Assembly: GCA_947625705.1 (NCBI GenBank)
Contig: CANQPG010000026.1
Coordinates: 1 to 18,884, forward strand
DNA length: 18,884 nucleotides
Source: an uncultured Peptococcaceae bacterium
GTDB taxonomy: Bacteria > Bacillota > Dehalobacteriia > UBA4068 > UBA4997
Reading direction: 5' to 3'
Within the stretch, counting starts at the first letter, position 1, and every line of letters starts with the position of its first letter. The notes beneath the pieces were generated by a model. That model searched no databases and was not told the DNA's origin. It worked only from the letters and a program-made list of their open reading frames with translations. The translations under genes were made by a program, and so were the position numbers. This document shows positions 6,042 through 18,390 of the stretch, one piece after another.

Positions 6042-6079
6042 ATAAAGAAAAACACCTTATTTAAGGTGTTTTTCTTTAT
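6042..6079. terminator. Hairpin terminator immediately after rdgB; also the likely left junction of the integrated element
   Basis: Perfect 18-nt inverted repeat ATAAAGAAAAACACCTTA (6042-6059) / TAAGGTGTTTTTCTTTAT (6062-6079). The right arm is T-rich. The recombinase stop codon (6078-6076, minus) lies inside the right arm. Confidence 0.75.
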
Positions 6080-7590
6080 GGCGCACCCAATGGCGCAAAA
6101 TCCGAACATATCATTGAGCCGCTTTCGGCGACCTTTTCGGCTTCGGGCAGACTGATTTTTTTACTGTGGCCGTTAAAGTTAAGCTGCAGCAGAAGCTTGC
6201 CGTCATCATACACATAGACTGCCTGCAAGAATGTTTCGACTATGTATATTCGCCATGACACGTCGCTGTAATCCGCGGTGCGGAAACGCTGCAGGAACCA
6301 GATCACAGTATCGCGGGATATGCTGACGTTTTCCAAGCGTTCTTTGGTTATACCTTTTTCCAGCGCCGCCCGCTCGGCTTCCAGCTCCATTATGTGGCTT
6401 TTCAGGCTATCGGTCACAAAGCCGCTGTCGATAAGCGCCATGGAGTTTTTGATAGCAGATTGGGTTTGCTTCAGACGTTTTTCCAGCGCGGTGGCGTGGC
6501 TGCTGGCGGACTGTTCTGCCTGCCATGCCATAAAGGTGTCGGCTATGCCGTTGATCAGGCCGTCGTCTTGAATAATATCGACCAATGCTTTAATAACTGC
6601 GTCCTCAATGAGCTGCTTGGATATGCTCTGACGGGCGCATTTCTTTTTGCGGCGGCCATTGCAGGTGTAATAATGGTAAATTGCGCCGCTTTTGCCGGTG
6701 CCGCTGTCGCCGGTCATCGCCTCGCCGCACTCGCCGCAGAATATTTTGGTCGTCAGCAGGAAACCGCCCTCGGTTTTCTTGGCCGCCGGCGCTTCGTGGT
6801 GTTTTTTCAGCATGGCTTGCACCTTGTTAAAAAGTTCTTTGGTCACGATTGGGGTTATGGCGTTTTCGTCGTAAATATCATCATAGCGGTAGACGCCGAT
6901 GTACTTCTCGTTTTGCAGAATACGCCGCAGGGAATTCTTGTTAAAGAGGTTTCCCCTGACGGTGCGATACCCCTCGTTGTTGAGATCGGTGTAAATATCA
7001 ACAGCGGGGCGGCCGGCGGCGTATTCCTCGAAAATGCGGCGCACGATCGGCGCGGTGGCCGGATCCGGCTCGTAACGCTTTTCAGCGTTTTGCCGCAGAC
7101 CGAAAACCATGCGCCCCAGCGTTTGCCGCTTTAAGGCGCTGTCATAATTGCCGCGCTTGACGTTTTGGGAGAGGTTGGCGGAGTAGTATTCGGCAAAGCC
7201 CTCCATGACGCTTTCCAATATAATACCCTCCGGGCCGTCCGGGATAAGCTCTTTGGCATAAAGCACCTGAACGCCGTTTTGCTTCAGCTTGTATTTGTAA
7301 ACGGCGCTGTCGTAGCGGGAGCGTGCGAAGCGGTCATTCTTCCAGCAGAGTACCACCGAGAATTGGCCTTTGGCGCTGTCGCGGATCATGCGCTGAAATT
7401 CCGGGCGTTTATCTGACGTGCCGGAAAGGGCGCGGTCACAGTATTCACCCACAACGGTAAGGCCGTGCTTTTTGGCAAATTCGTGGCAATCGCGGAGCTG
7501 CCCCTCTATGCTTTCTTCTCGCTGGCCGTTATAGGAATAGCGGGCATATATAACTGCGAAAAGGGTTGTATCAGAAATGATATTGTTCAT
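6076..7590 (-). CDS. Large serine recombinase (phage integrase type)
   Basis: 504 aa. N-terminal resolvase catalytic domain (AVIYARYSYNGQREESIEGQ with the nucleophile Ser context, then WKNDRFARS). Recombinase domain, Zn-ribbon CGECGE...YHYYTCNGRRKKKC, and a coiled-coil-like C-terminal region. Confidence 0.9.
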   Translation of the reverse strand: MNNIISDTTLFAVIYARYSYNGQREESIEGQLRDCHEFAKKHGLTVVGEYCDRALSGTSDKRPEFQRMIRDSAKGQFSVVLCWKNDRFARSRYDSAVYKYKLKQNGVQVLYAKELIPDGPEGIILESVMEGFAEYYSANLSQNVKRGNYDSALKRQTLGRMVFGLRQNAEKRYEPDPATAPIVRRIFEEYAAGRPAVDIYTDLNNEGYRTVRGNLFNKNSLRRILQNEKYIGVYRYDDIYDENAITPIVTKELFNKVQAMLKKHHEAPAAKKTEGGFLLTTKIFCGECGEAMTGDSGTGKSGAIYHYYTCNGRRKKKCARQSISKQLIEDAVIKALVDIIQDDGLINGIADTFMAWQAEQSASSHATALEKRLKQTQSAIKNSMALIDSGFVTDSLKSHIMELEAERAALEKGITKERLENVSISRDTVIWFLQRFRTADYSDVSWRIYIVETFLQAVYVYDDGKLLLQLNFNGHSKKISLPEAEKVAESGSMICSDFAPLGAP

Positions 7591-7636: not shown

Positions 7637-8371
7637 TCAAAAATTACGCTTAATTGCTTCTATGATAGTAACGACAGCGGCAATACAGTTGATTATTGAA
7701 TGAAGCAATAAATACAAGTTAAAGCCATTGATGTAGAAATAAATAGCCGTTCCGACAGTGTTGATTAGGAGAATTGTAATTGCGGTTGCTAATATCCCTA
7801 TGTTAAGACTGGAATTGTTTATGCCAATTTCTTTTGCTGATCCTGCACTAATAGCTGTTATCCAACAAGTTAGAAAAAGAGATAATATATAAAAGAAAAT
7901 ATGATTTACACCGAAAGCAATAGAGTTAATTACACTGCTTAACAAAAGAAAAATGGAAATACCAACCCACCAACTGCATAGATTTGAGTAGATAATAACA
8001 GGTAATGAATAATGACCATAAATGGTTGTACTAAAAATCAAAACAACAAAATAGAGTACGGTGCCTAATATTGATATTCCAATGTATGCTAAAATAAGAT
8101 ATTCAACCAATGAATATGTGTGATTGCTTTCTTTGCTGCTGCCGTTACCTGAGCCGCCGCTGTTTTGCCCAGTTTTATCATCAAAGTTATAAGGACAAAC
8201 ACCATTAGTGTGCAGGTGTGCCGGATAGCCGTGGTGGTAATGATATTCGCCGGTGGATCTGTCATAGTGGCCGCCGTTTTCGTCGGTGCTTCCGCCATGA
8301 GCCAGCGCAACCGTCTGAAAACACAGCAGGCAGCACAGACATAGCAACAAAATGCGGCACGGTGTTTTCAT
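7637..8371 (-). CDS. Signal-peptide protein with a YHYH-type His-rich motif fused to a multi-pass AT-rich membrane domain
   Basis: 244 aa. RBS GGAAAGGA upstream. Signal peptide MKTPCRILLLCLCCLLCFQTVALA. Then HGGSTDENGGHYDRSTGEYHYHHGYPAHLH, a Gly/Ser linker, and about 5-6 hydrophobic helices. Confidence 0.75.
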   Translation of the reverse strand: MKTPCRILLLCLCCLLCFQTVALAHGGSTDENGGHYDRSTGEYHYHHGYPAHLHTNGVCPYNFDDKTGQNSGGSGNGSSKESNHTYSLVEYLILAYIGISILGTVLYFVVLIFSTTIYGHYSLPVIIYSNLCSWWVGISIFLLLSSVINSIAFGVNHIFFYILSLFLTCWITAISAGSAKEIGINNSSLNIGILATAITILLINTVGTAIYFYINGFNLYLLLHSIINCIAAVVTIIEAIKRNF

Positions 8372-8395: not shown

Positions 8396-9058
8396 TTATT
8401 TGCCCACGCAGTCCTTGCAGGGCGCATAGCCCATGTTTTCGGCTGCGGCCTTGGTGATAGCCATGACTTGACGATCCCGTATGTGGTAGCAATCGGCCGT
8501 ATGATAACTCCGACCGCTGGCGGTTATGTAATACTCGCCGGCGATGGGCGCGGCGGTAACCTCCGGGGCGGCAAGCTGATCAGCGGAAGTGTCGTTGAGC
8601 TGCGCTGCCAACACCGGAAATACTGCCAACATTAGAACAAAAGCAAAAATCAGTATATTGCGCCGCAAATGGTTAGGCGGTTTCAAAAGCTTGTCGGCAA
8701 AGTAGGCGGCCTCGGCTTCTTGCTGAACGCAGGCCGCCGGGGAGATGACGTCGGTGGAGATATGCCCCAGCAGGATATGCCCAATTTCATGCGCCAAAAG
8801 GCGGGGCAGCATATCCGGCGGCAGATTTTCCCGCATGAAGATCAGTTTTGTTTGGCCGAGTTGCTGCGAAAAGGCGTCTTTGTGTCTGATATACTCCTTT
8901 AACTCAAGCTGGCGGATAATGGCGTCATTTTCATTGTTAAAAAGAAATATTTGCCAGCCTAAATTGTTGATGTAAGCGCTTAGATTGGTAAAATTTGGCT
9001 GGGAGCCTAACGCTCGGCGGACTTGCCGCGCCATTTTGCTGATTTGCCGTTTGTCCAT
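8396..9058 (-). CDS. ImmA/IrrE-family zinc metalloprotease with a transmembrane helix and a C-terminal Cys/His domain
   Basis: 220 aa. HEIGH in LLAHEIGHILLGH. TM helix ILIFAFVLMLAVFPVLAA preceded by LRRN. C-terminal YHTADCYHIRDRQVMAITKAAAENMGYAPCKDC resembles Ada-type / secreted Zn-binding motifs. Lies directly downstream of the XRE repressor, as in immR-immA pairs. Confidence 0.8.
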   Translation of the reverse strand: MDKRQISKMARQVRRALGSQPNFTNLSAYINNLGWQIFLFNNENDAIIRQLELKEYIRHKDAFSQQLGQTKLIFMRENLPPDMLPRLLAHEIGHILLGHISTDVISPAACVQQEAEAAYFADKLLKPPNHLRRNILIFAFVLMLAVFPVLAAQLNDTSADQLAAPEVTAAPIAGEYYITASGRSYHTADCYHIRDRQVMAITKAAAENMGYAPCKDCVGK

Positions 9059-9132: not shown

Positions 9133-9663
9133 TTATTTATCAGTGTTTTTATTTTGGGAGCGTAATTGCTCGTAGAGCTTTTCGGCAGCTGCGATTTGTT
9201 CTGGGGTGGGCGGCGGCATAATGCGGTTATCGCCGCCATAGGCCACAAGCCTGACGCCTTGCTTTTTTGCCTCTTGCTGCTTTTTCAGTGCAGCAAGAGC
9301 TATTTTTTCTTTTTCTGCTTCGGTAAGCGCCGGAGGCTGCTGGGGATTTTCCATAAGCAGCAAGCTATCCAACATATTATCTGCGGCCTTTTGCCCGGTG
9401 GGCGAAAGCTGCAGATATTTTTTTATGCCCTCCGGCAGGGAGGCGTCGGCAAAAATGGCGGTGGGCTGATCAGCACGCCCCAGCAGATAATCCACCGAGC
9501 AGCCGAGGTAGTCAGCTAATTTTATCAGCGTTTCACCATTGGGCAAAGCTCCATCTTTTTTCCATTTGGTTGCAACTGGGGAAGATAAACCGATTGCCTT
9601 AACTACGGGATTGGGTTTTGTATTTTTTTTTATACATAAATCGTAAAATCGCTCCCAGAACAT
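9133..9663 (-). CDS. XRE-family HTH repressor (CI/ImmR-like)
   Basis: 176 aa. N-terminal HTH (KAIGLSSPVATKWKKDGALPNGETLIKLADYLGCSVDYLLGR). No recognisable S24 Ser-Lys peptidase segment in the C-terminal half. Divergent from the early operon. Confidence 0.85.
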   Translation of the reverse strand: MFWERFYDLCIKKNTKPNPVVKAIGLSSPVATKWKKDGALPNGETLIKLADYLGCSVDYLLGRADQPTAIFADASLPEGIKKYLQLSPTGQKAADNMLDSLLLMENPQQPPALTEAEKEKIALAALKKQQEAKKQGVRLVAYGGDNRIMPPPTPEQIAAAEKLYEQLRSQNKNTDK

Positions 9664-9679
9664 ATAGACCTCCGAAAAA

Positions 9680-9756
9680 AACTAACAAAAGTTAACAAAA
9701 GGCGTTGACAAACTAATAAAAGTTAGTTATAATATACCCAAGTTAATCATTTAACC
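9680..9756. promoter_or_regulatory. Operator-like repeats in the repressor/early-promoter intergenic region
   Basis: AACTAACAAAAGTTAAC (9680-9696) and AACTAATAAAAGTTAGTT (9711-9728; AACTAA/TTAGTT inverted arms) are 31 bp apart. The second fills the -35/-10 spacer. A third palindrome, GTTAATCATTTAAC, lies at 9742-9755. Confidence 0.45.
9705..9733 (+). promoter_or_regulatory. Consensus sigma-A-type early (rightward) promoter
   Basis: TTGACA (9705-9710), exact 17-nt spacer, TATAAT (9728-9733). About 85 nt upstream of the first rightward ORF. Confidence 0.6.
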
Positions 9757-10293: not shown

Positions 10294-10317
10294 GAGTGCT
10301 TCTTCCTTTCGCTGATT

Positions 10318-10346
10318 ATTATAGCACGGCGGGCGGGGACAAACAA
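10318..10346 (-). promoter_or_regulatory. Candidate leftward promoter with extended -10
   Basis: On the minus strand: TTGTTT (10346-10341), 17-nt spacer ending in TGC, then TATAAT (10323-10318). This gives TGnTATAAT, about 25 nt upstream of the ATG at 10293. Confidence 0.4.
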
Positions 10347-10364
10347 GTTAAGGGAGGTGATGAT

Positions 10365-10568
10365 ATGGCAGTTGGGCAGAACATCAGGGCGAGACGCGAG
10401 GCTATGAATATGCAGCAGATGGAGCTGGCGGACAAGCTGGGGGTTACGAAAGCGTTTGTTTCGCAGATTGAAATGGGGCGCAAGCAGCCGCCGGTTTGGT
10501 TATGCGCGGCGGCTGCAGAAATTCTTGGCTGCACCATTGATGAGCTGGTAAACGGGAAAGCGAGTTAA
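10365..10568 (+). CDS. XRE-family HTH protein (Cro-like)
   Basis: Start taken at ATG 10365 (RBS AAGGGAGGTGA, 5 nt spacing) rather than the track start at 10296. 67 aa. MAVGQNIRARREAMNMQQMELADKLGVTKAFVSQIEMGRKQP is a canonical HTH_3 pattern. Confidence 0.8.
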   Translation: MAVGQNIRARREAMNMQQMELADKLGVTKAFVSQIEMGRKQPPVWLCAAAAEILGCTIDELVNGKAS

Positions 10569-14355: not shown

Positions 14356-14898
14356 ATGCAGCACTTAGGAGATATAACCAAACTTAACGGCTGGGATATG
14401 CCGCCGGTGGACGTGATCATCGGTGGCAGCCCGTGCCAGGACCTATCGGTGGCAGGAAAGGGCGCAGGGCTGGACGGAGAGCGCAGTGGTTTATTTTTGG
14501 AGCAAATCAGAATTGTTAAGGAGATGAGGGCAGCAGATGAGCAAAGAGGCCGAACAGGTCAGTTTATACGACCTCGGTTTATGGTCTGGGAAAACGTCCC
14601 CGGAGCGTTCTCCAGCCACGGTGGACAAGACTTCCGGCGCGTCCTCGAAGAGGTCATTAGGATCGCGGAGCCGGAAGCCCCCGACGTTCCACTACCTGCA
14701 AAAGGAAAGTGGCCAATGGCTGACTGCTGGTATGGCGATGGCTGGTCCGTTGCCTACCGAGTACACGATGGACAGTTTTGGGGAGTGCCCCAGCGTCGCC
14801 GTCGTATCGCACTTGTCGCAGATTTTGGAGGACACGCCGCACCCGAAATACTGTTTAACCGCCGCCGGGTGTGCGGGGATATTAAAGCGATCTGCTGA
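14356..14898 (+). CDS. Cytosine-5 DNA methyltransferase fragment carrying motifs III, IV, VI and VIII only (catalytic half)
   Basis: MQHLGDITKL (motif III), GGSPCQDLS (motif IV, 14422-14448), FMVWENVPG (motif VI, 14590-14604), GVPQRRRRIALVADF (motif VIII, from 14791). No FxGxG motif I in or upstream of this frame. The start could also be ATG 14272, inside the repeat region. Confidence 0.7.
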   Translation: MQHLGDITKLNGWDMPPVDVIIGGSPCQDLSVAGKGAGLDGERSGLFLEQIRIVKEMRAADEQRGRTGQFIRPRFMVWENVPGAFSSHGGQDFRRVLEEVIRIAEPEAPDVPLPAKGKWPMADCWYGDGWSVAYRVHDGQFWGVPQRRRRIALVADFGGHAAPEILFNRRRVCGDIKAIC

Positions 14899-15886
14899 AC
14901 GCGGCAAGGAAATGCCCTTGGAACTGGAAGCAGTTTTAACATACCAGCGCGATCATTACGATGAGATACTCGCCCTTTTAACGTCAGCATTTGAAAACGC
15001 AGCAGGGTTTAATTTCAAGGCTGGTGCAAAAGCCGGAAGTATCGGGTATGCGCCCGATTGCGCGCCGACATTACAGGCAGAAAGACAAAGCGGCGTGTTG
15101 GTTTATGAAAATCACAGCCAAGACAGCAGATATAGAGGGCCGTTGAATGTAAGCCCTACAATGTCGCGGAAATGGGGAACTGGCGGAAATAATACTCCCA
15201 TTGTTGTCGCGACCGGGCAAGCAAACGCAGAGATAACGGAGGATATGTCTCCAACGCTGAATTGCAACCATGAGCAGCCTATTGTGATTTACGGTATATC
15301 CGCACATAACAGCAAAGCAATGCTATCGGATAATCCGCATAACGGCATTTACCGGGCTGATACCGCACGTACGCTGGACAATAACGGCGGCAATCCGACC
15401 TGCAATCAGGGCGGCATACTGATAATGCAGCCTTATACCACAAGCAAAGTGGCACATACACTGCGACCAAATTCTTGCTACCCTTATCGTCTGGACGCGG
15501 CTACCTATGTTATAGAGCCGTTCGGTTATACGCGCCGCTTTACACCGCTGGAATGTGAGCGCTTACAGGGCTTCCCGGACGGCTGGACGGATATAGGCGA
15601 GTGGACGGACAGCAAAGGGAAACTCCATAAGGCGAGCAGCGATAGTGCAAGGTATCGGGCGCTGGGCAATTCCATAGCCCTGCCGCCGTGGAAGTGGGTG
15701 CTGAAACGCATTTCCGCCTTGTATGAGCGCGACGTCACGATGGGCAGTTTGTTCGATGGTATCGGCGGTTTCCCCTTGATTTGGGAGCAGTTGAATGGCG
15801 CGGGAAGCTGCCTTTGGGCAAGCGAGATTGACGAATTTTGTATCGCCGTGACCAAGCGGCAGTTTGGACGGGAGGTGAGCGAATGA
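14537..15886 (+). CDS. Cytosine-5 DNA methyltransferase fragment carrying TRD, motifs IX and X, then motifs I and II (+1 frame relative to 14356-14898)
   Basis: 449 aa. GAGGG 6 nt before the ATG. LSQILEDTPHPKYCLTAAGCAGILKRSAERGKEMP and NPHNGIYRADTARTLDNNGGNPTCNQGG are TRD-type strings. RRFTPLECERLQGFPDGW is motif IX, ALGNSIALP is motif X. Then MGSLFDGIGGF (motif I, 15749-15772) and WASEID (motif II). The start is uncertain because the first 362 nt overlap the previous ORF. Confidence 0.7.
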   Translation: MSKEAEQVSLYDLGLWSGKTSPERSPATVDKTSGASSKRSLGSRSRKPPTFHYLQKESGQWLTAGMAMAGPLPTEYTMDSFGECPSVAVVSHLSQILEDTPHPKYCLTAAGCAGILKRSAERGKEMPLELEAVLTYQRDHYDEILALLTSAFENAAGFNFKAGAKAGSIGYAPDCAPTLQAERQSGVLVYENHSQDSRYRGPLNVSPTMSRKWGTGGNNTPIVVATGQANAEITEDMSPTLNCNHEQPIVIYGISAHNSKAMLSDNPHNGIYRADTARTLDNNGGNPTCNQGGILIMQPYTTSKVAHTLRPNSCYPYRLDAATYVIEPFGYTRRFTPLECERLQGFPDGWTDIGEWTDSKGKLHKASSDSARYRALGNSIALPPWKWVLKRISALYERDVTMGSLFDGIGGFPLIWEQLNGAGSCLWASEIDEFCIAVTKRQFGREVSE

Positions 15887-18390
15887 GTTTATCGTATAGA
15901 GAATTTCTCCAAACCAAGATGGAGATAGCGCCGGAAAGCGGTTTCGATATTCCGCCGGAAGAAATCAACCCGGCGTTGAAGCCGCATCAGCGGGTAGCCG
16001 TCCAGTGGGCTATAAAGGGCGGCTGCCGGGCGTTGTTTGAGGCTTTTGGTCTTGGCAAGACGGCGCAGCAGCTCGAATGGGCGCGGTTAATCACCAAGCA
16101 CCGGGGCGGCAAGGCGCTGATCGTACTGCCGCTGAATGTTAAACGGGAGTTTCAGAACGACGCTGTGAAGCTGCTGGGGCTTGACGAGCCGGTTTATGTG
16201 CGTAATATGGCCGAGGTCAAAGCGGCTGCCGGTAATATTCTGCTGACCAATTATGAGCGGGTGCGCGACGGAGATATTCAGCCGGAATACTTCACCGCTG
16301 CCAGCTTGGACGAGGCTTTGGTTTTGCGGGATTTCGGCAGCAAAACATACCAGACCTTTTTGCAGAAGTTCAGGCAGGTAAGGTATAAACTGCTGGCCAC
16401 GGCCACGCCGGCGCCAAATCGGTATAAAGAGCTGATCCATTACGCCGGATATTTGGGCGTTATGGATACCGGACAGGCGCTGACGCGCTTCTTCCAGCGG
16501 GACAGCACCAAGGCGAACAATTTGACGCTTTACCCGCACAAGCAGATGGAGTTCTGGCTGTGGGTGAGCAGCTGGGCTTTGTTTATAACGAAACCCTCGG
16601 ATCTGGGGTTTGATGATGAGGGCTATGCGCTGCCGCCGCTCAAGGTAAATTACCACCGTGTGGCCGTCGACCAAAGCACGGCCGGTTTTGAAAAGGACGG
16701 GCAGGCCAGACTGTTCCGTTCAGCTGCTTTATCCTTGCAGGACGAGGCTAAGGAAAAGCGCGACAGCATAGCGGCCAGAGTGGCAAAAATGGTTGAGATC
16801 GTCAATGCTGACCCCGGCGAGCATTTTATTCTGTGGCATGATTTGGAAGCCGAGCCCCACGCGATTAAAAATGCGCTGCCGGAAACCGTGGATATTTACG
16901 GCAGTATGGATATTGAAACCCGCGAAAAGCGGGTCAGTGATTTTGCCAACGGCAGGTGCCGGCTGTTCGCCACCAAGAAGTCTTTATCCGGCAGCGGCTG
17001 CAATTTACAGCGCCATTGTCACCGTGCGATATTCTTGGGCATAGATTACGAGTTTAACGATTTCATTCAGGCCATACACCGCATTTACCGCTTTTTGCAA
17101 AAAGACGAGGTCATTATCGACGTGATCTACACCGAGTCTGAGGATATGATCTTGGAGGCTCTGCAAAAGAAGTGGCGGCAGTTTGATGAAATGACCGAAC
17201 AGATGGTGGCTATAGTTAAAAAATACGGTCTGTCCGGCCAGCATATTCAAGAGAGTTTAGGCCGCAAAATGGGGGTGGAAAGAACGGAGGTTAAGGGAAC
17301 ATATTTTACCGCTATTCATAATGATTGCGTGCAGGAATGTGCCAATATGGCAGATAACAGCGTCGGTCTGATACATACCTCGATACCGTTTGGCAATCAT
17401 TACGAATACTCGGCCAATTATAACGATTTCGGTCATAACGAAAACACGGAGCGGTTTTTCGAGCAGATGGACTATCTGACGCCGGAGCTGCTGCGGATCT
17501 TGCAGCCGGGGCGTGTGTTCGCCTGCCACGTTAAAGACCGTGTGCTGTTCGGCAACGCTACCGGCACGGGTATGCCGACGATCGAGCCGTTCCACGCGCT
17601 GTGCATTGAGCATTACACGAAGCACGGCTTCATGTATTTTGGCATGATAACCGTCGTGACCGATGTCGTGCGTGAGAATAACCAGACATACCGGCTGGGG
17701 TGGTCTGAACAATGCAAGGACGGCAGCAAGATGGGGGTTGGCTGCCCGGAATATATCCTGCTGTTCCGCAAACTGCCCACCGATACCAGCCGAGCCTATG
17801 CCGACGATCCTGTTACCAAGAGCAAGCAGGACTATACGCGGGCACAATGGCAAATTGACGCGCACGGCTATTACCGTTCCTCCGGCGATCGCCTGATCAG
17901 CAAAAAGGAATTGGAGAGCGTGCCGGTGGACAGGCTGCAGGCCGTTTACCGGGAATACAGCCGCCATAACGTATACAGCTATGCCGAACACGTGGCGTTA
18001 GCCAAGAAGCTGGACGTTGAGGGGAAACTCCCCGCCAGTTTTATGGTGGTGGCTCCCGGCTCATGGAGTGATGAGGTTTGGGACGATATAAACCGTATGC
18101 GGACGCTTAACACCAACCAGAGCAAGCGACGCCAGCAGCTGCACGTCTGCCCGCTTCAGCTGGATATTGTCGAGCGGATAATTAACCGCTATTCCAACCA
18201 GGGTGACGTGGTATTCGACCCGTTTGCCGGGTTGTTCACCGTGCCGTATATGGCCGTAAAGATGGGGCGCATTGGCGTGGGCGTGGAGCTTAATCTGGAT
18301 TATTTCCGGGACGGCGTCGGTTATTTACAGGCTGCCGAGGCGAAGATCAGTGAGCCGACGCTGTTTGATTTTTTGGATATTGCCAATTAA
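15883..18390 (+). CDS. SNF2/SF2 helicase fused to a C-terminal amino (N6-A/N4-C) DNA methyltransferase domain
   Basis: ATG 15883 (RBS GGAGGTGA) overlaps the previous TGA as ATGA. Helicase motifs: LKPHQ, GLGKT (16048-16062), DEAL (16309-16320), ATATP, QAIHRIYR. MTase domain of beta-class order: HTSIPFG (17380-17391 = SIPF) upstream of HVCPLQLDIVERII...VVFDPFAGLFTV (18214-18240). Confidence 0.85.
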   Translation: MSLSYREFLQTKMEIAPESGFDIPPEEINPALKPHQRVAVQWAIKGGCRALFEAFGLGKTAQQLEWARLITKHRGGKALIVLPLNVKREFQNDAVKLLGLDEPVYVRNMAEVKAAAGNILLTNYERVRDGDIQPEYFTAASLDEALVLRDFGSKTYQTFLQKFRQVRYKLLATATPAPNRYKELIHYAGYLGVMDTGQALTRFFQRDSTKANNLTLYPHKQMEFWLWVSSWALFITKPSDLGFDDEGYALPPLKVNYHRVAVDQSTAGFEKDGQARLFRSAALSLQDEAKEKRDSIAARVAKMVEIVNADPGEHFILWHDLEAEPHAIKNALPETVDIYGSMDIETREKRVSDFANGRCRLFATKKSLSGSGCNLQRHCHRAIFLGIDYEFNDFIQAIHRIYRFLQKDEVIIDVIYTESEDMILEALQKKWRQFDEMTEQMVAIVKKYGLSGQHIQESLGRKMGVERTEVKGTYFTAIHNDCVQECANMADNSVGLIHTSIPFGNHYEYSANYNDFGHNENTERFFEQMDYLTPELLRILQPGRVFACHVKDRVLFGNATGTGMPTIEPFHALCIEHYTKHGFMYFGMITVVTDVVRENNQTYRLGWSEQCKDGSKMGVGCPEYILLFRKLPTDTSRAYADDPVTKSKQDYTRAQWQIDAHGYYRSSGDRLISKKELESVPVDRLQAVYREYSRHNVYSYAEHVALAKKLDVEGKLPASFMVVAPGSWSDEVWDDINRMRTLNTNQSKRRQQLHVCPLQLDIVERIINRYSNQGDVVFDPFAGLFTVPYMAVKMGRIGVGVELNLDYFRDGVGYLQAAEAKISEPTLFDFLDIAN

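Follow-up and report, generated by a model that had tools for sequence, protein, structure and literature searches.

The left end of a prophage lies on an 18,884-nt stretch of DNA (positions 1 to 18,884 of contig CANQPG010000026.1, assembly GCA_947625705.1) from an uncultured Peptococcaceae bacterium of the class Dehalobacteriia; this whole stretch is referred to here as the window. On the minus strand of the window, in a lysogeny module, is a gene for a 220-amino acid (aa) protease that consists of three parts: an M78 (ImmA/IrrE) peptidase domain, one hydrophobic helix, and a 46-aa Cys/His tail. An earlier reading of the sequence (the original prediction) had described the gene as encoding a membrane-anchored ImmA-type anti-repressor protease at 8396 to 9058. 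The list of open reading frames (ORFs) agrees with these coordinates and with the strand, and an AGGAGGG ribosome-binding site is found 7 nt 5′ of the ATG. The features of the gene and its product, each with the basis for its assignment, are the following.

8396 to 9058 (stop codon included), minus strand: gene for the membrane-anchored ImmA-like protease, 220 aa (ORF list, ribosome-binding site, homologues with E-values down to 1e-100)
8669 to 9058, minus strand: predicted cytoplasmic M78 (ImmA/IrrE, COG2856) zinc-peptidase domain, aa 1-130 (PF06114, AlphaFold2, Foldseek)
8777 to 8791, minus strand: HEIGH catalytic zinc motif, aa 90-94, with H90, E91 and H94 (read from the sequence)
8678 to 8719, minus strand: EAEAAYFADKLLKP, a COG2856-type downstream motif, aa 114-127 (read from the sequence)
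8603 to 8656, minus strand: predicted single transmembrane helix ILIFAFVLMLAVFPVLAA, aa 135-152, with HLRRN just before it (hydropathy, AlphaFold2)
8537 to 8602, minus strand: acidic linker with Pro, Ala and Thr, aa 153-174, predicted to be disordered (AlphaFold2 confidence)
8399 to 8536, minus strand: putatively extracytoplasmic Ada_Zn_binding-like domain, aa 175-220 (invariant ligands, AlphaFold2, Foldseek, profile)
8501 to 8503, 8489 to 8491, 8417 to 8419 and 8408 to 8410, minus strand: predicted zinc ligands H186, C190, C214 and C217, respectively

Domain architecture of the protease

The N-terminal part of the protein contains both motifs by which M78 proteins are recognized, HExxH and a downstream E-x-x-A-x-x-F-A-x-x-L-L-x-P. 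The third zinc ligand is presumably the glutamate within EAEAAYFADKLLKP, an assignment that we take from established knowledge of the IrrE structure. The Pfam model for Peptidase_M78 (PF06114) matches the protein marginally, with 22.4 bits against a cut-off of 22, and there is a weak match to Peptidase_M48. Matching PHROG families include a metallo-protease (E 3e-8) and a transcriptional regulator (E 5.6e-12). A structure was modeled with AlphaFold2 on an alignment (A2) of 147 family representatives that are ≤50% identical to each other and about 21-75% identical to the query. The model has a mean predicted local distance difference test (pLDDT) score of 91.4 and includes a compact N-terminal domain with pLDDT >90. 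In a Foldseek comparison of the model with the PDB, COG2856 proteins rank first (probability 0.94-1.00 over about 135-140 aligned columns), the top entries being the Mycobacterium tuberculosis XRE-COG2856 regulator (6cz6/6cyy), Deinococcus geothermalis PprI (8slm/8sln), and IrrE (3dte). A library of predicted viral structures (BFVD) returned two groups of matches. The top group consists of phage ‘IrrE protein’ entries that match the N-terminal part, and the second matches the tail to entries annotated ‘Metal binding domain of Ada’; no BFVD entry covered both the peptidase part and the tail well. The modeled N-terminal domain is an IrrE-like fold of the M78 family, and motifs, PF06114, PHROG families, and Foldseek all agree with the HEIGH peptidase of M78/ImmA type that was originally proposed for aa 1-130.

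The catalytic domain is followed by a strongly hydrophobic helix, and in this respect the protein does not qualify as a soluble, cytoplasmic ImmA. ILIFAFVLMLAVFPVLAA has a mean Kyte-Doolittle (KD) hydropathy of 2.59 over 19 residues, with four Lys/Arg residues before it and none after, and AlphaFold2 models a continuous helix at aa 130-155. Exactly one hydrophobic segment follows HExxH in 143 of 146 relatives (median KD 2.5), and the 15 residues on its N-terminal side hold on average 2.9 Lys and Arg versus 1.2 on the C-terminal side. This bias is also seen within individual proteins, with the count on the N-terminal side being the higher in 110 relatives and the lower in 11. The single transmembrane helix with positively charged inner flank that the original prediction had read from the query alone is thus a property of the family. 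Beyond the helix, the linker (pLDDT 47-73, and <50 at aa 164-171) divides two confidently modeled domains; among relatives it spans 0-50 aa and is rich in Thr, Ser, Ala, Pro, and Glu, reaching about 95 aa in two loci (L007 and L009). The N-terminal domain lacks a signal peptide. Together with a presumed substrate that is a cytoplasmic, DNA-bound repressor, and with the exported relatives of the tail described below, the charge bias and the lack of a signal peptide argue for an N-in/C-out topology that would place the tail outside the cell membrane.

The tail is modeled as a small β-β-β-α domain at aa 176-220 in the full-length prediction, and by itself with a pLDDT of 86. The top three PDB matches to the tail in Foldseek are all the N-terminal domain of Escherichia coli Ada (N-Ada; 1wpk, 1u8b, 1zgw), with TMq 0.60-0.65 and a root-mean-square deviation of about 2.9 Å; for a domain of just 49 residues, weak E-values such as those obtained are no surprise. 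A profile of the tail built from 59 sequences (A5) and compared with the whole PDB also finds N-Ada alone (E 0.005-0.009), the eA..gY.PCk.C.P end being aligned, and a smaller tail profile (A3) gave no match in the PDB. The Pfam model Ada_Zn_binding (PF02805) scores 14 bits on the tail, below its gathering score of 23, and reaches E ≤0.01 in 4 of the 147 family members. A search of the source genome with PF02805 gave sub-threshold matches only. Taken with the invariant ligands described in the next section, the fold and profile comparisons indicate that the tail is a divergent Ada_Zn_binding domain, in line with the Ada-like, zinc-binding Cys/His motif of the original prediction. The NCBI label ‘sunset domain’, considered for the tail motif, was dropped after NCBIfam gave no match on the tail and nothing relevant was found in the literature.

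The zinc ligands of Ada are C38-x3-C42 and C69-x2-C72, and Cys38 is the methyl acceptor. The spacing of the tail ligands, H186-x3-C190 and C214-x2-C217, mirrors this arrangement and, by ligand spacing and established knowledge of Ada, puts an invariant histidine at the position of Cys38. With a histidine in place of the methyl-acceptor cysteine no methyl transfer is expected, and the tail would be expected to serve as a structural or binding zinc module rather than as a repair domain.

An abundant protein family

A word-based search provided a seed of six relatives (27-74% identity), all with the three-part architecture. A profile of these relatives was then scored against 1.84 billion cluster representatives (clusters at 50% identity), giving 6869 matches at E ≤0.001, 1212 at E ≤1e-10, and 174 at E ≤1e-30. 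Nearly all of the best 150 matches are 200-250 aa long and align from end to end. Seven columns of alignment A2 are invariant: H90 and H94 of the active site, G182, and the four tail ligands H186, C190, C214, and C217. E91, A117, and F120 are conserved in ≥90% of sequences, the consensus of the downstream motif is ExEAxxFAxxVL, and Peptidase_M78 is matched at E ≤0.01 in 144 of the 147 members (best E 1.7e-11). At least 150 clusters have it as a single, uninterrupted gene. The original prediction had called for a survey of ImmA homologues for the same C-terminal extension; the tail is conserved, with its four ligands unchanged in all 147 representatives. The conservation of the catalytic residues, of the one helix, and of the zinc ligands in the tail means that selection maintains all three together, and chance can be excluded since homologues reach E-values of 1e-100 and each part is still conserved at about 22% identity. 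Rather than being peculiar to a single phage, the architecture defines an abundant family of at least 174 clusters at 50% identity.

In the class of the source organism, 7 of 73 species genomes have the gene, as do at least 4 of 401 genomes in an even sample of the phylum (seven candidates scored per genome); such a patchy distribution is expected for prophage genes. A locus search with a further alignment (A1) gave six loci, and a search with the tail as a separate region among homologous proteins returned the two closest relatives only. In a phage collection searched with tblastn there was no full-length match; four weak matches to the tail were obtained, none of them in a pneumococcal phage, and one of them, in Funu1, falls in an unannotated stretch. 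Several variants of the family were noted. One copy is broken by a TAA stop (L015; G035:C10:12192-12680), a 155-aa form has the peptidase and helix without the tail (L016; G060:C124), and a 274-aa protein (P0041) has two tandem M78 domains and no helix. In the literature searched, no description was found of a transmembrane or membrane-anchored ImmA, or of DUF6233, a domain matched by some of the tail's relatives.

Other proteins that carry the zinc module

Of 73 genomes of the same class searched with the tail profile, 22 encode the module. Among carriers other than ImmA, the module stands after a signal peptide, a lipobox, or an N-terminal anchor in 17 of the 18 that were readable. These 18 carriers comprise five SNase fusions, three fusions to an MBL-fold domain (Lactamase_B), and one SH3 fusion, the rest being small exported proteins; the SNase and MBL assignments are confirmed by Pfam. 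PF02805 (cut-off 23) gives 25-42 bits on the nuclease-borne relatives that the tail profile brought in. The SNase carriers (L022, L032, L035, L037, L038) and the MBL-fold carriers (L034, L041, L044) are secreted proteins or lipoproteins with the module at the C-terminus, where its Ada_Zn_binding match passes or approaches the Pfam cut-off. A link of the tail with secreted, DNA-acting proteins, in line with the secreted DNA- or metal-binding modules that the original prediction had associated with its motif, is supported.

The module also occurs in tandem. Three proteins (P0082, 487 aa; P0109, 899 aa; P0130, 711 aa) have seven to nine copies that are separated by Pro/Ala-rich linkers. They come from high-G+C, actinobacterial-looking DNA and match both PF02805 and DUF6233, with a copy consensus of VWVVDGxPxYHxxGC...AVEDGFxPCxxC. 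These proteins have either no signal peptide or two helices with a strongly basic stretch behind them, and judged by these features they are probably cytoplasmic. The extracytoplasmic location originally assigned to the tail thus finds support in the exported carriers of the same class and probably does not extend to the tandem repeats of Actinobacteria.

In two relatives' loci, the module is encoded a second time, downstream of the membrane ImmA in the slot before the integrase. In L002 (2438-3436) the gene specifies a secreted Cu_amine_oxidN1-SNase nuclease with its own Ada-like module, and in L045 (7553-8041) a 162-aa, N-terminally anchored protein with its own copy. These copies may share a ligand with the neighboring membrane ImmA.

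Gene order of the lysogeny module

Host-like genes (phosphoribosyltransferase, GIY-YIG, Ham1) occupy the window up to about 6040. The other features of the lysogeny module are listed here.

6076 to 7590, minus strand: large serine recombinase, which is the prophage integrase and marks the element's edge (domains Resolvase, Recombinase, and Zn_ribbon_recom)
7637 to 8371, minus strand: variable cargo slot, here filled by a gene for a polytopic membrane protein with a signal peptide and a YHYH-domain head (NF033223 YHYH_alt, 38.3 bits; cut-off 30)
9133 to 9663, minus strand: partner XRE-type repressor, 176 aa (HTH_26 and HTH_3 only)
9679 to 9733, strand not assigned: switch region with two AAACTAAYAAAAGTTA copies and a rightward promoter, in a gap of 156 nt
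10296 to 10568, plus strand: small Cro-like helix-turn-helix (HTH) protein, divergently encoded in the early lytic operon (E about 1e-10 to PHROG transcription-regulator families)

The cargo gene has a G+C content of 38% versus 52% in its neighbors, and in relatives the slot is filled by unrelated genes. Farther into the prophage, a C5 cytosine methylase (14537-15886, plus strand) overlaps by 49 nt a gene at 15838-18390 (plus strand) for an 850-aa fusion of an SNF2 helicase and an N6-N4 methylase, a match to the phage helicase family phrog_16. Since the contig runs out shortly beyond 18390, the prophage is truncated.

The same order of genes is found in the window and in nine other loci (L001, L002, L004-L006, L045, L047-L049): a Cro-like gene that diverges from an XRE repressor, then the gene for the M78 domain, helix, and tail, one or two variable genes, and lastly the integrase gene, which encodes a serine or a tyrosine recombinase. 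Phage replication or lysis genes lie close by; in L048, holin and amidase genes adjoin the integrase. Small divergent HTH genes take the Cro-like position in L045, L048, and L049. The partner repressors in the relatives' loci are at the same position and, like that of the window, lack S24. In about ten loci, then, the gene has an ImmA-type setting, that is, beside an XRE repressor without an autopeptidase domain and in the lysogeny module of a mobile element, which bears out the prophage context of the original prediction. No second ImmA-like gene was seen within the window or the examined stretches of the relatives' loci.

The repressor and the switch region

Scans of the repressor at 9133 to 9663 against family libraries found HTH families only and no S24 domain, as had been claimed for it, together with an RstR-like match below cut-off. 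Thirteen partner repressors were compared, including those of the window and of L001, L002, L004-L006, L012, L013, L045, and L047-L049. Two motifs are common to 12 of the 13, a central KYRxLNxxGK and a C-terminal h-[IV]-A-[YFWAK]-[GD]-[GVI]. The latter takes forms such as LVAYGG, IAAWGG, MIAFGG, and MVAYDV, and is represented in the window by RLVAYGG at about aa 139-146. The C-terminal motif may be the place at which the protease docks or cuts.

The promoter in the switch region, TTGACA-17-TATAAT at 9705-9733, is a 12/12 match to the sigma-70 consensus and is directed rightward into the lytic genes. Copies of AAACTAAYAAAAGTTA at 9679-9694 and 9710-9725 overlap the switch promoter. The second copy lies within the palindrome AACTAA-N6-TTAGTT in the promoter spacer, and the upstream copy is imperfect and 31 nt from the second. 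The AAACTAAYAAAAGTTA repeats are probably operators of the repressor.

Comparison with known systems

The closest counterpart is the ImmR/ImmA pair of Bacillus subtilis ICEBs1 and phage phi105. As in those elements, an HExxH M78 protein is encoded next to an S24-less XRE repressor in an arm, terminated by the integrase, of a divergent, Cro-type switch, and site-specific cleavage of the repressor is presumed by analogy for the family described here. Classical ImmA is small, soluble, and cytoplasmic, and is activated via RecA or RapI, whereas the present protein has a transmembrane helix and a putatively extracytoplasmic zinc module. Judged by its sequence, the locus is the immR-immA-int layout of ICEBs1/phi105-type elements with the protease exchanged for a membrane-spanning form.

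IrrE/PprI-DdrO of Deinococcus and CapP-CapH of CBASS share the peptidase fold (3dte and 8slm; CapP, 7t5t, by a weak sequence match) and the pairing with an XRE repressor, and their proteases have an extra C-terminal sensor part as well. The sensor parts of IrrE/PprI and CapP are HTH and GAF-like, reside in the cytoplasm, and detect internal DNA damage; in the family described here the corresponding part would be an Ada-like module across the membrane. PprI features as a sensor of single-stranded DNA (ssDNA) in an item of the reference list of PMC12637031 (PDB 8sln).

In its logic, the architecture resembles BlaR1/MecR1, in which a single membrane protein has a sensor domain for ligands outside the cell and, inside it, an HExxH protease by which a DNA-bound repressor (BlaI/MecI) is inactivated. 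The weak Peptidase_M48 match of the prophage protease hints at a broader zincin kinship and is not a specific homology. BlaR1 is polytopic (four transmembrane helices), belongs to M56, has a penicillin-binding sensor, and controls a resistance gene, whereas the protein described here joins an M78 domain by one transmembrane helix to an Ada-like zinc module and would control a prophage. With E. coli N-Ada (PF02805; 1adn, 1u8b, 1wpk, 1zgw) the tail shares the β-β-β-α zinc fold, the X-x3-C ... C-x2-C spacing, and an (A)xxGYxPCxxC end. It differs in its histidine instead of the methyl-acceptor Cys38, in having no AraC-type domain after it, in its predicted extracytoplasmic location, and in a Pfam score of its own below cut-off.

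Finally, SzaL, SpaL, and ThaL of pneumococcal prophages are surface-exposed zinc (metallo)proteins or transmembrane proteins that are likewise encoded in ImmAR-type lysogeny modules (PMC12637031). They are reported to modulate prophage activation by competence or cell density, and so provide a precedent for lysogeny-module proteins at the cell surface influencing induction and for outside information reaching an ImmAR switch (PMC12637031). Compared by description, SzaL, SpaL, and ThaL are encoded separately from immA, whereas here the protease itself would be surface-exposed.

Possible functions of the membrane-spanning protease

We propose, as the most likely reading, that the protease is a membrane-tethered ImmA anti-repressor that acts as an outside-in switch of a temperate phage in the manner of BlaR1/MecR1. 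Based on sequence, models, and analogy, we regard this proposal as evenly poised between right and wrong. The M78 domain (aa 1-130) would lie in the cytoplasm within reach of the XRE repressor that is encoded just upstream, the helix at aa 135-152 would cross the membrane, and the flexible linker would present the 46-aa, Ada-type His-Cys3 zinc module on the outside. A ligand on the outer module would alter the clustering or orientation of the cytoplasmic protease domains; the activated protease would cleave the repressor, freeing the promoter at 9705-9733 and leading to lytic growth. The topology and the domains that occur together suggest that induction would respond to a signal from the cell envelope or from outside the cell instead of to RecA.

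The leading candidate for a ligand is extracellular DNA or a similar polyanion, because the module is habitual on secreted nucleases and derives from a DNA-binding fold; this choice is speculative. Oligomerization on a polymeric ligand of this kind would suit a single-pass protein. A complete version of the scheme, in which binding of extracellular DNA or another polyanion, of the envelope or matrix, by the outer module leads to clustering, the M78 domain cuts the repressor, induction is independent of RecA, and nearby module-bearing nucleases tune the cue, is one that we consider unlikely to be right in all of its parts.

Several observations weigh against the outside-in proposal. The tail has a weakly basic character (mean net charge of +1.6, with a range of -5 to +7), so that DNA binding is not obvious, and the apparently cytoplasmic repeat proteins of Actinobacteria imply that the location of the module depends on context. 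A single-pass helix allows only oligomerization-type signaling, and relatives that have the helix and no tail, such as L016, suggest that the anchor alone may be the essential feature. The Pfam scores of this protein are also marginal, at 22.4 against 22 for M78 and 14 against 23 for Ada_Zn_binding.

A possible though doubtful alternative takes the anchor to be the whole purpose of the added parts. The protease would then be an ordinary anti-repressor with an intracellular trigger, RecA-ssDNA or similar, as for ImmA of ICEBs1. The helix and outer module would hold it at the membrane and away from the nucleoid-bound repressor, for low basal cleavage or for protein stability, and the module would fasten it to polymers of the wall or matrix and sense nothing. 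Single-pass proteins are in general poor conformational transducers, and retention of the helix in 143 of 146 relatives along with rare tail-less forms (L016) fits such tethering. Classical ImmA systems, moreover, respond to DNA damage (PMC12323379, PMC12637031). Yet four zinc ligands and G182 that are invariant in 147 diverged representatives exceed the needs of a passive spacer, the tail is a defined module common to secreted nucleases, and a lipid anchor or a bare helix would suffice for tethering.

A lysogenic-conversion or exclusion factor is a distinctly less probable function. Here, the outer module would intercept incoming or extracellular DNA, giving superinfection exclusion or a block to transformation, and the M78 domain would act on another substrate or as an antitoxin-type regulator, as in systems of the RosmerTA kind. 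ImmA-like domains are known in defense and toxin-antitoxin systems (PMC10440598), prophages interact with transformation (PMC12637031), and the adjoining slot encodes cargo that is secreted or exposed at the surface and in some cases includes the module as well (the SNase of L002 and the 162-aa anchored protein of L045). The gene, however, always directly follows the S24-less XRE repressor of a Cro-type switch and precedes the integrase, which is the canonical immR-immA position. The downstream slot is variable and supplies no conserved toxin-like partner, and with no second ImmA-like gene in the examined stretches there is nothing else in them to induce the S24-less repressors.

An artefact, with a hydrophobic stretch that does not span the membrane or an ORF that is a chance or fused reading, and with a cytoplasmic zinc ribbon for a tail, is hardly credible: the domain is cytoplasmic in the actinobacterial repeat proteins, but the KD mean of 2.59 over 19 residues, the matching segment in 143 of 146 relatives (median 2.5), the continuous AlphaFold2 helix with a disordered linker parting two confident domains, and a single, uninterrupted gene in at least 150 clusters all speak against it.

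Implications for prophage induction

Most known prophage switches read the interior of the cell, by RecA-dependent self-cleavage or through soluble anti-repressors, and a few read peptide or quorum signals via separate receptors. If the outside-in proposal is correct, an anti-repressor and an outward-binding membrane protein are united in one polypeptide, which would be the simplest wiring of an external cue to induction. A direct test is within reach, as it involves two genes and one promoter. The exported Ada-like zinc module is itself widespread on secreted nucleases, suggesting a further use of the Ada fold, of which no discussion was found in the literature searched. Should the DNA-sensing version also hold, a phage of this type would stay dormant or turn lytic according to a cue that neighboring cells lyse or that DNA is coming in. 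The family is common in prophages of gut Clostridia and in metagenomes (at least 174 clusters; 7 of 73 genomes of the class), and a switch of this kind could shape phage blooms in the gut.

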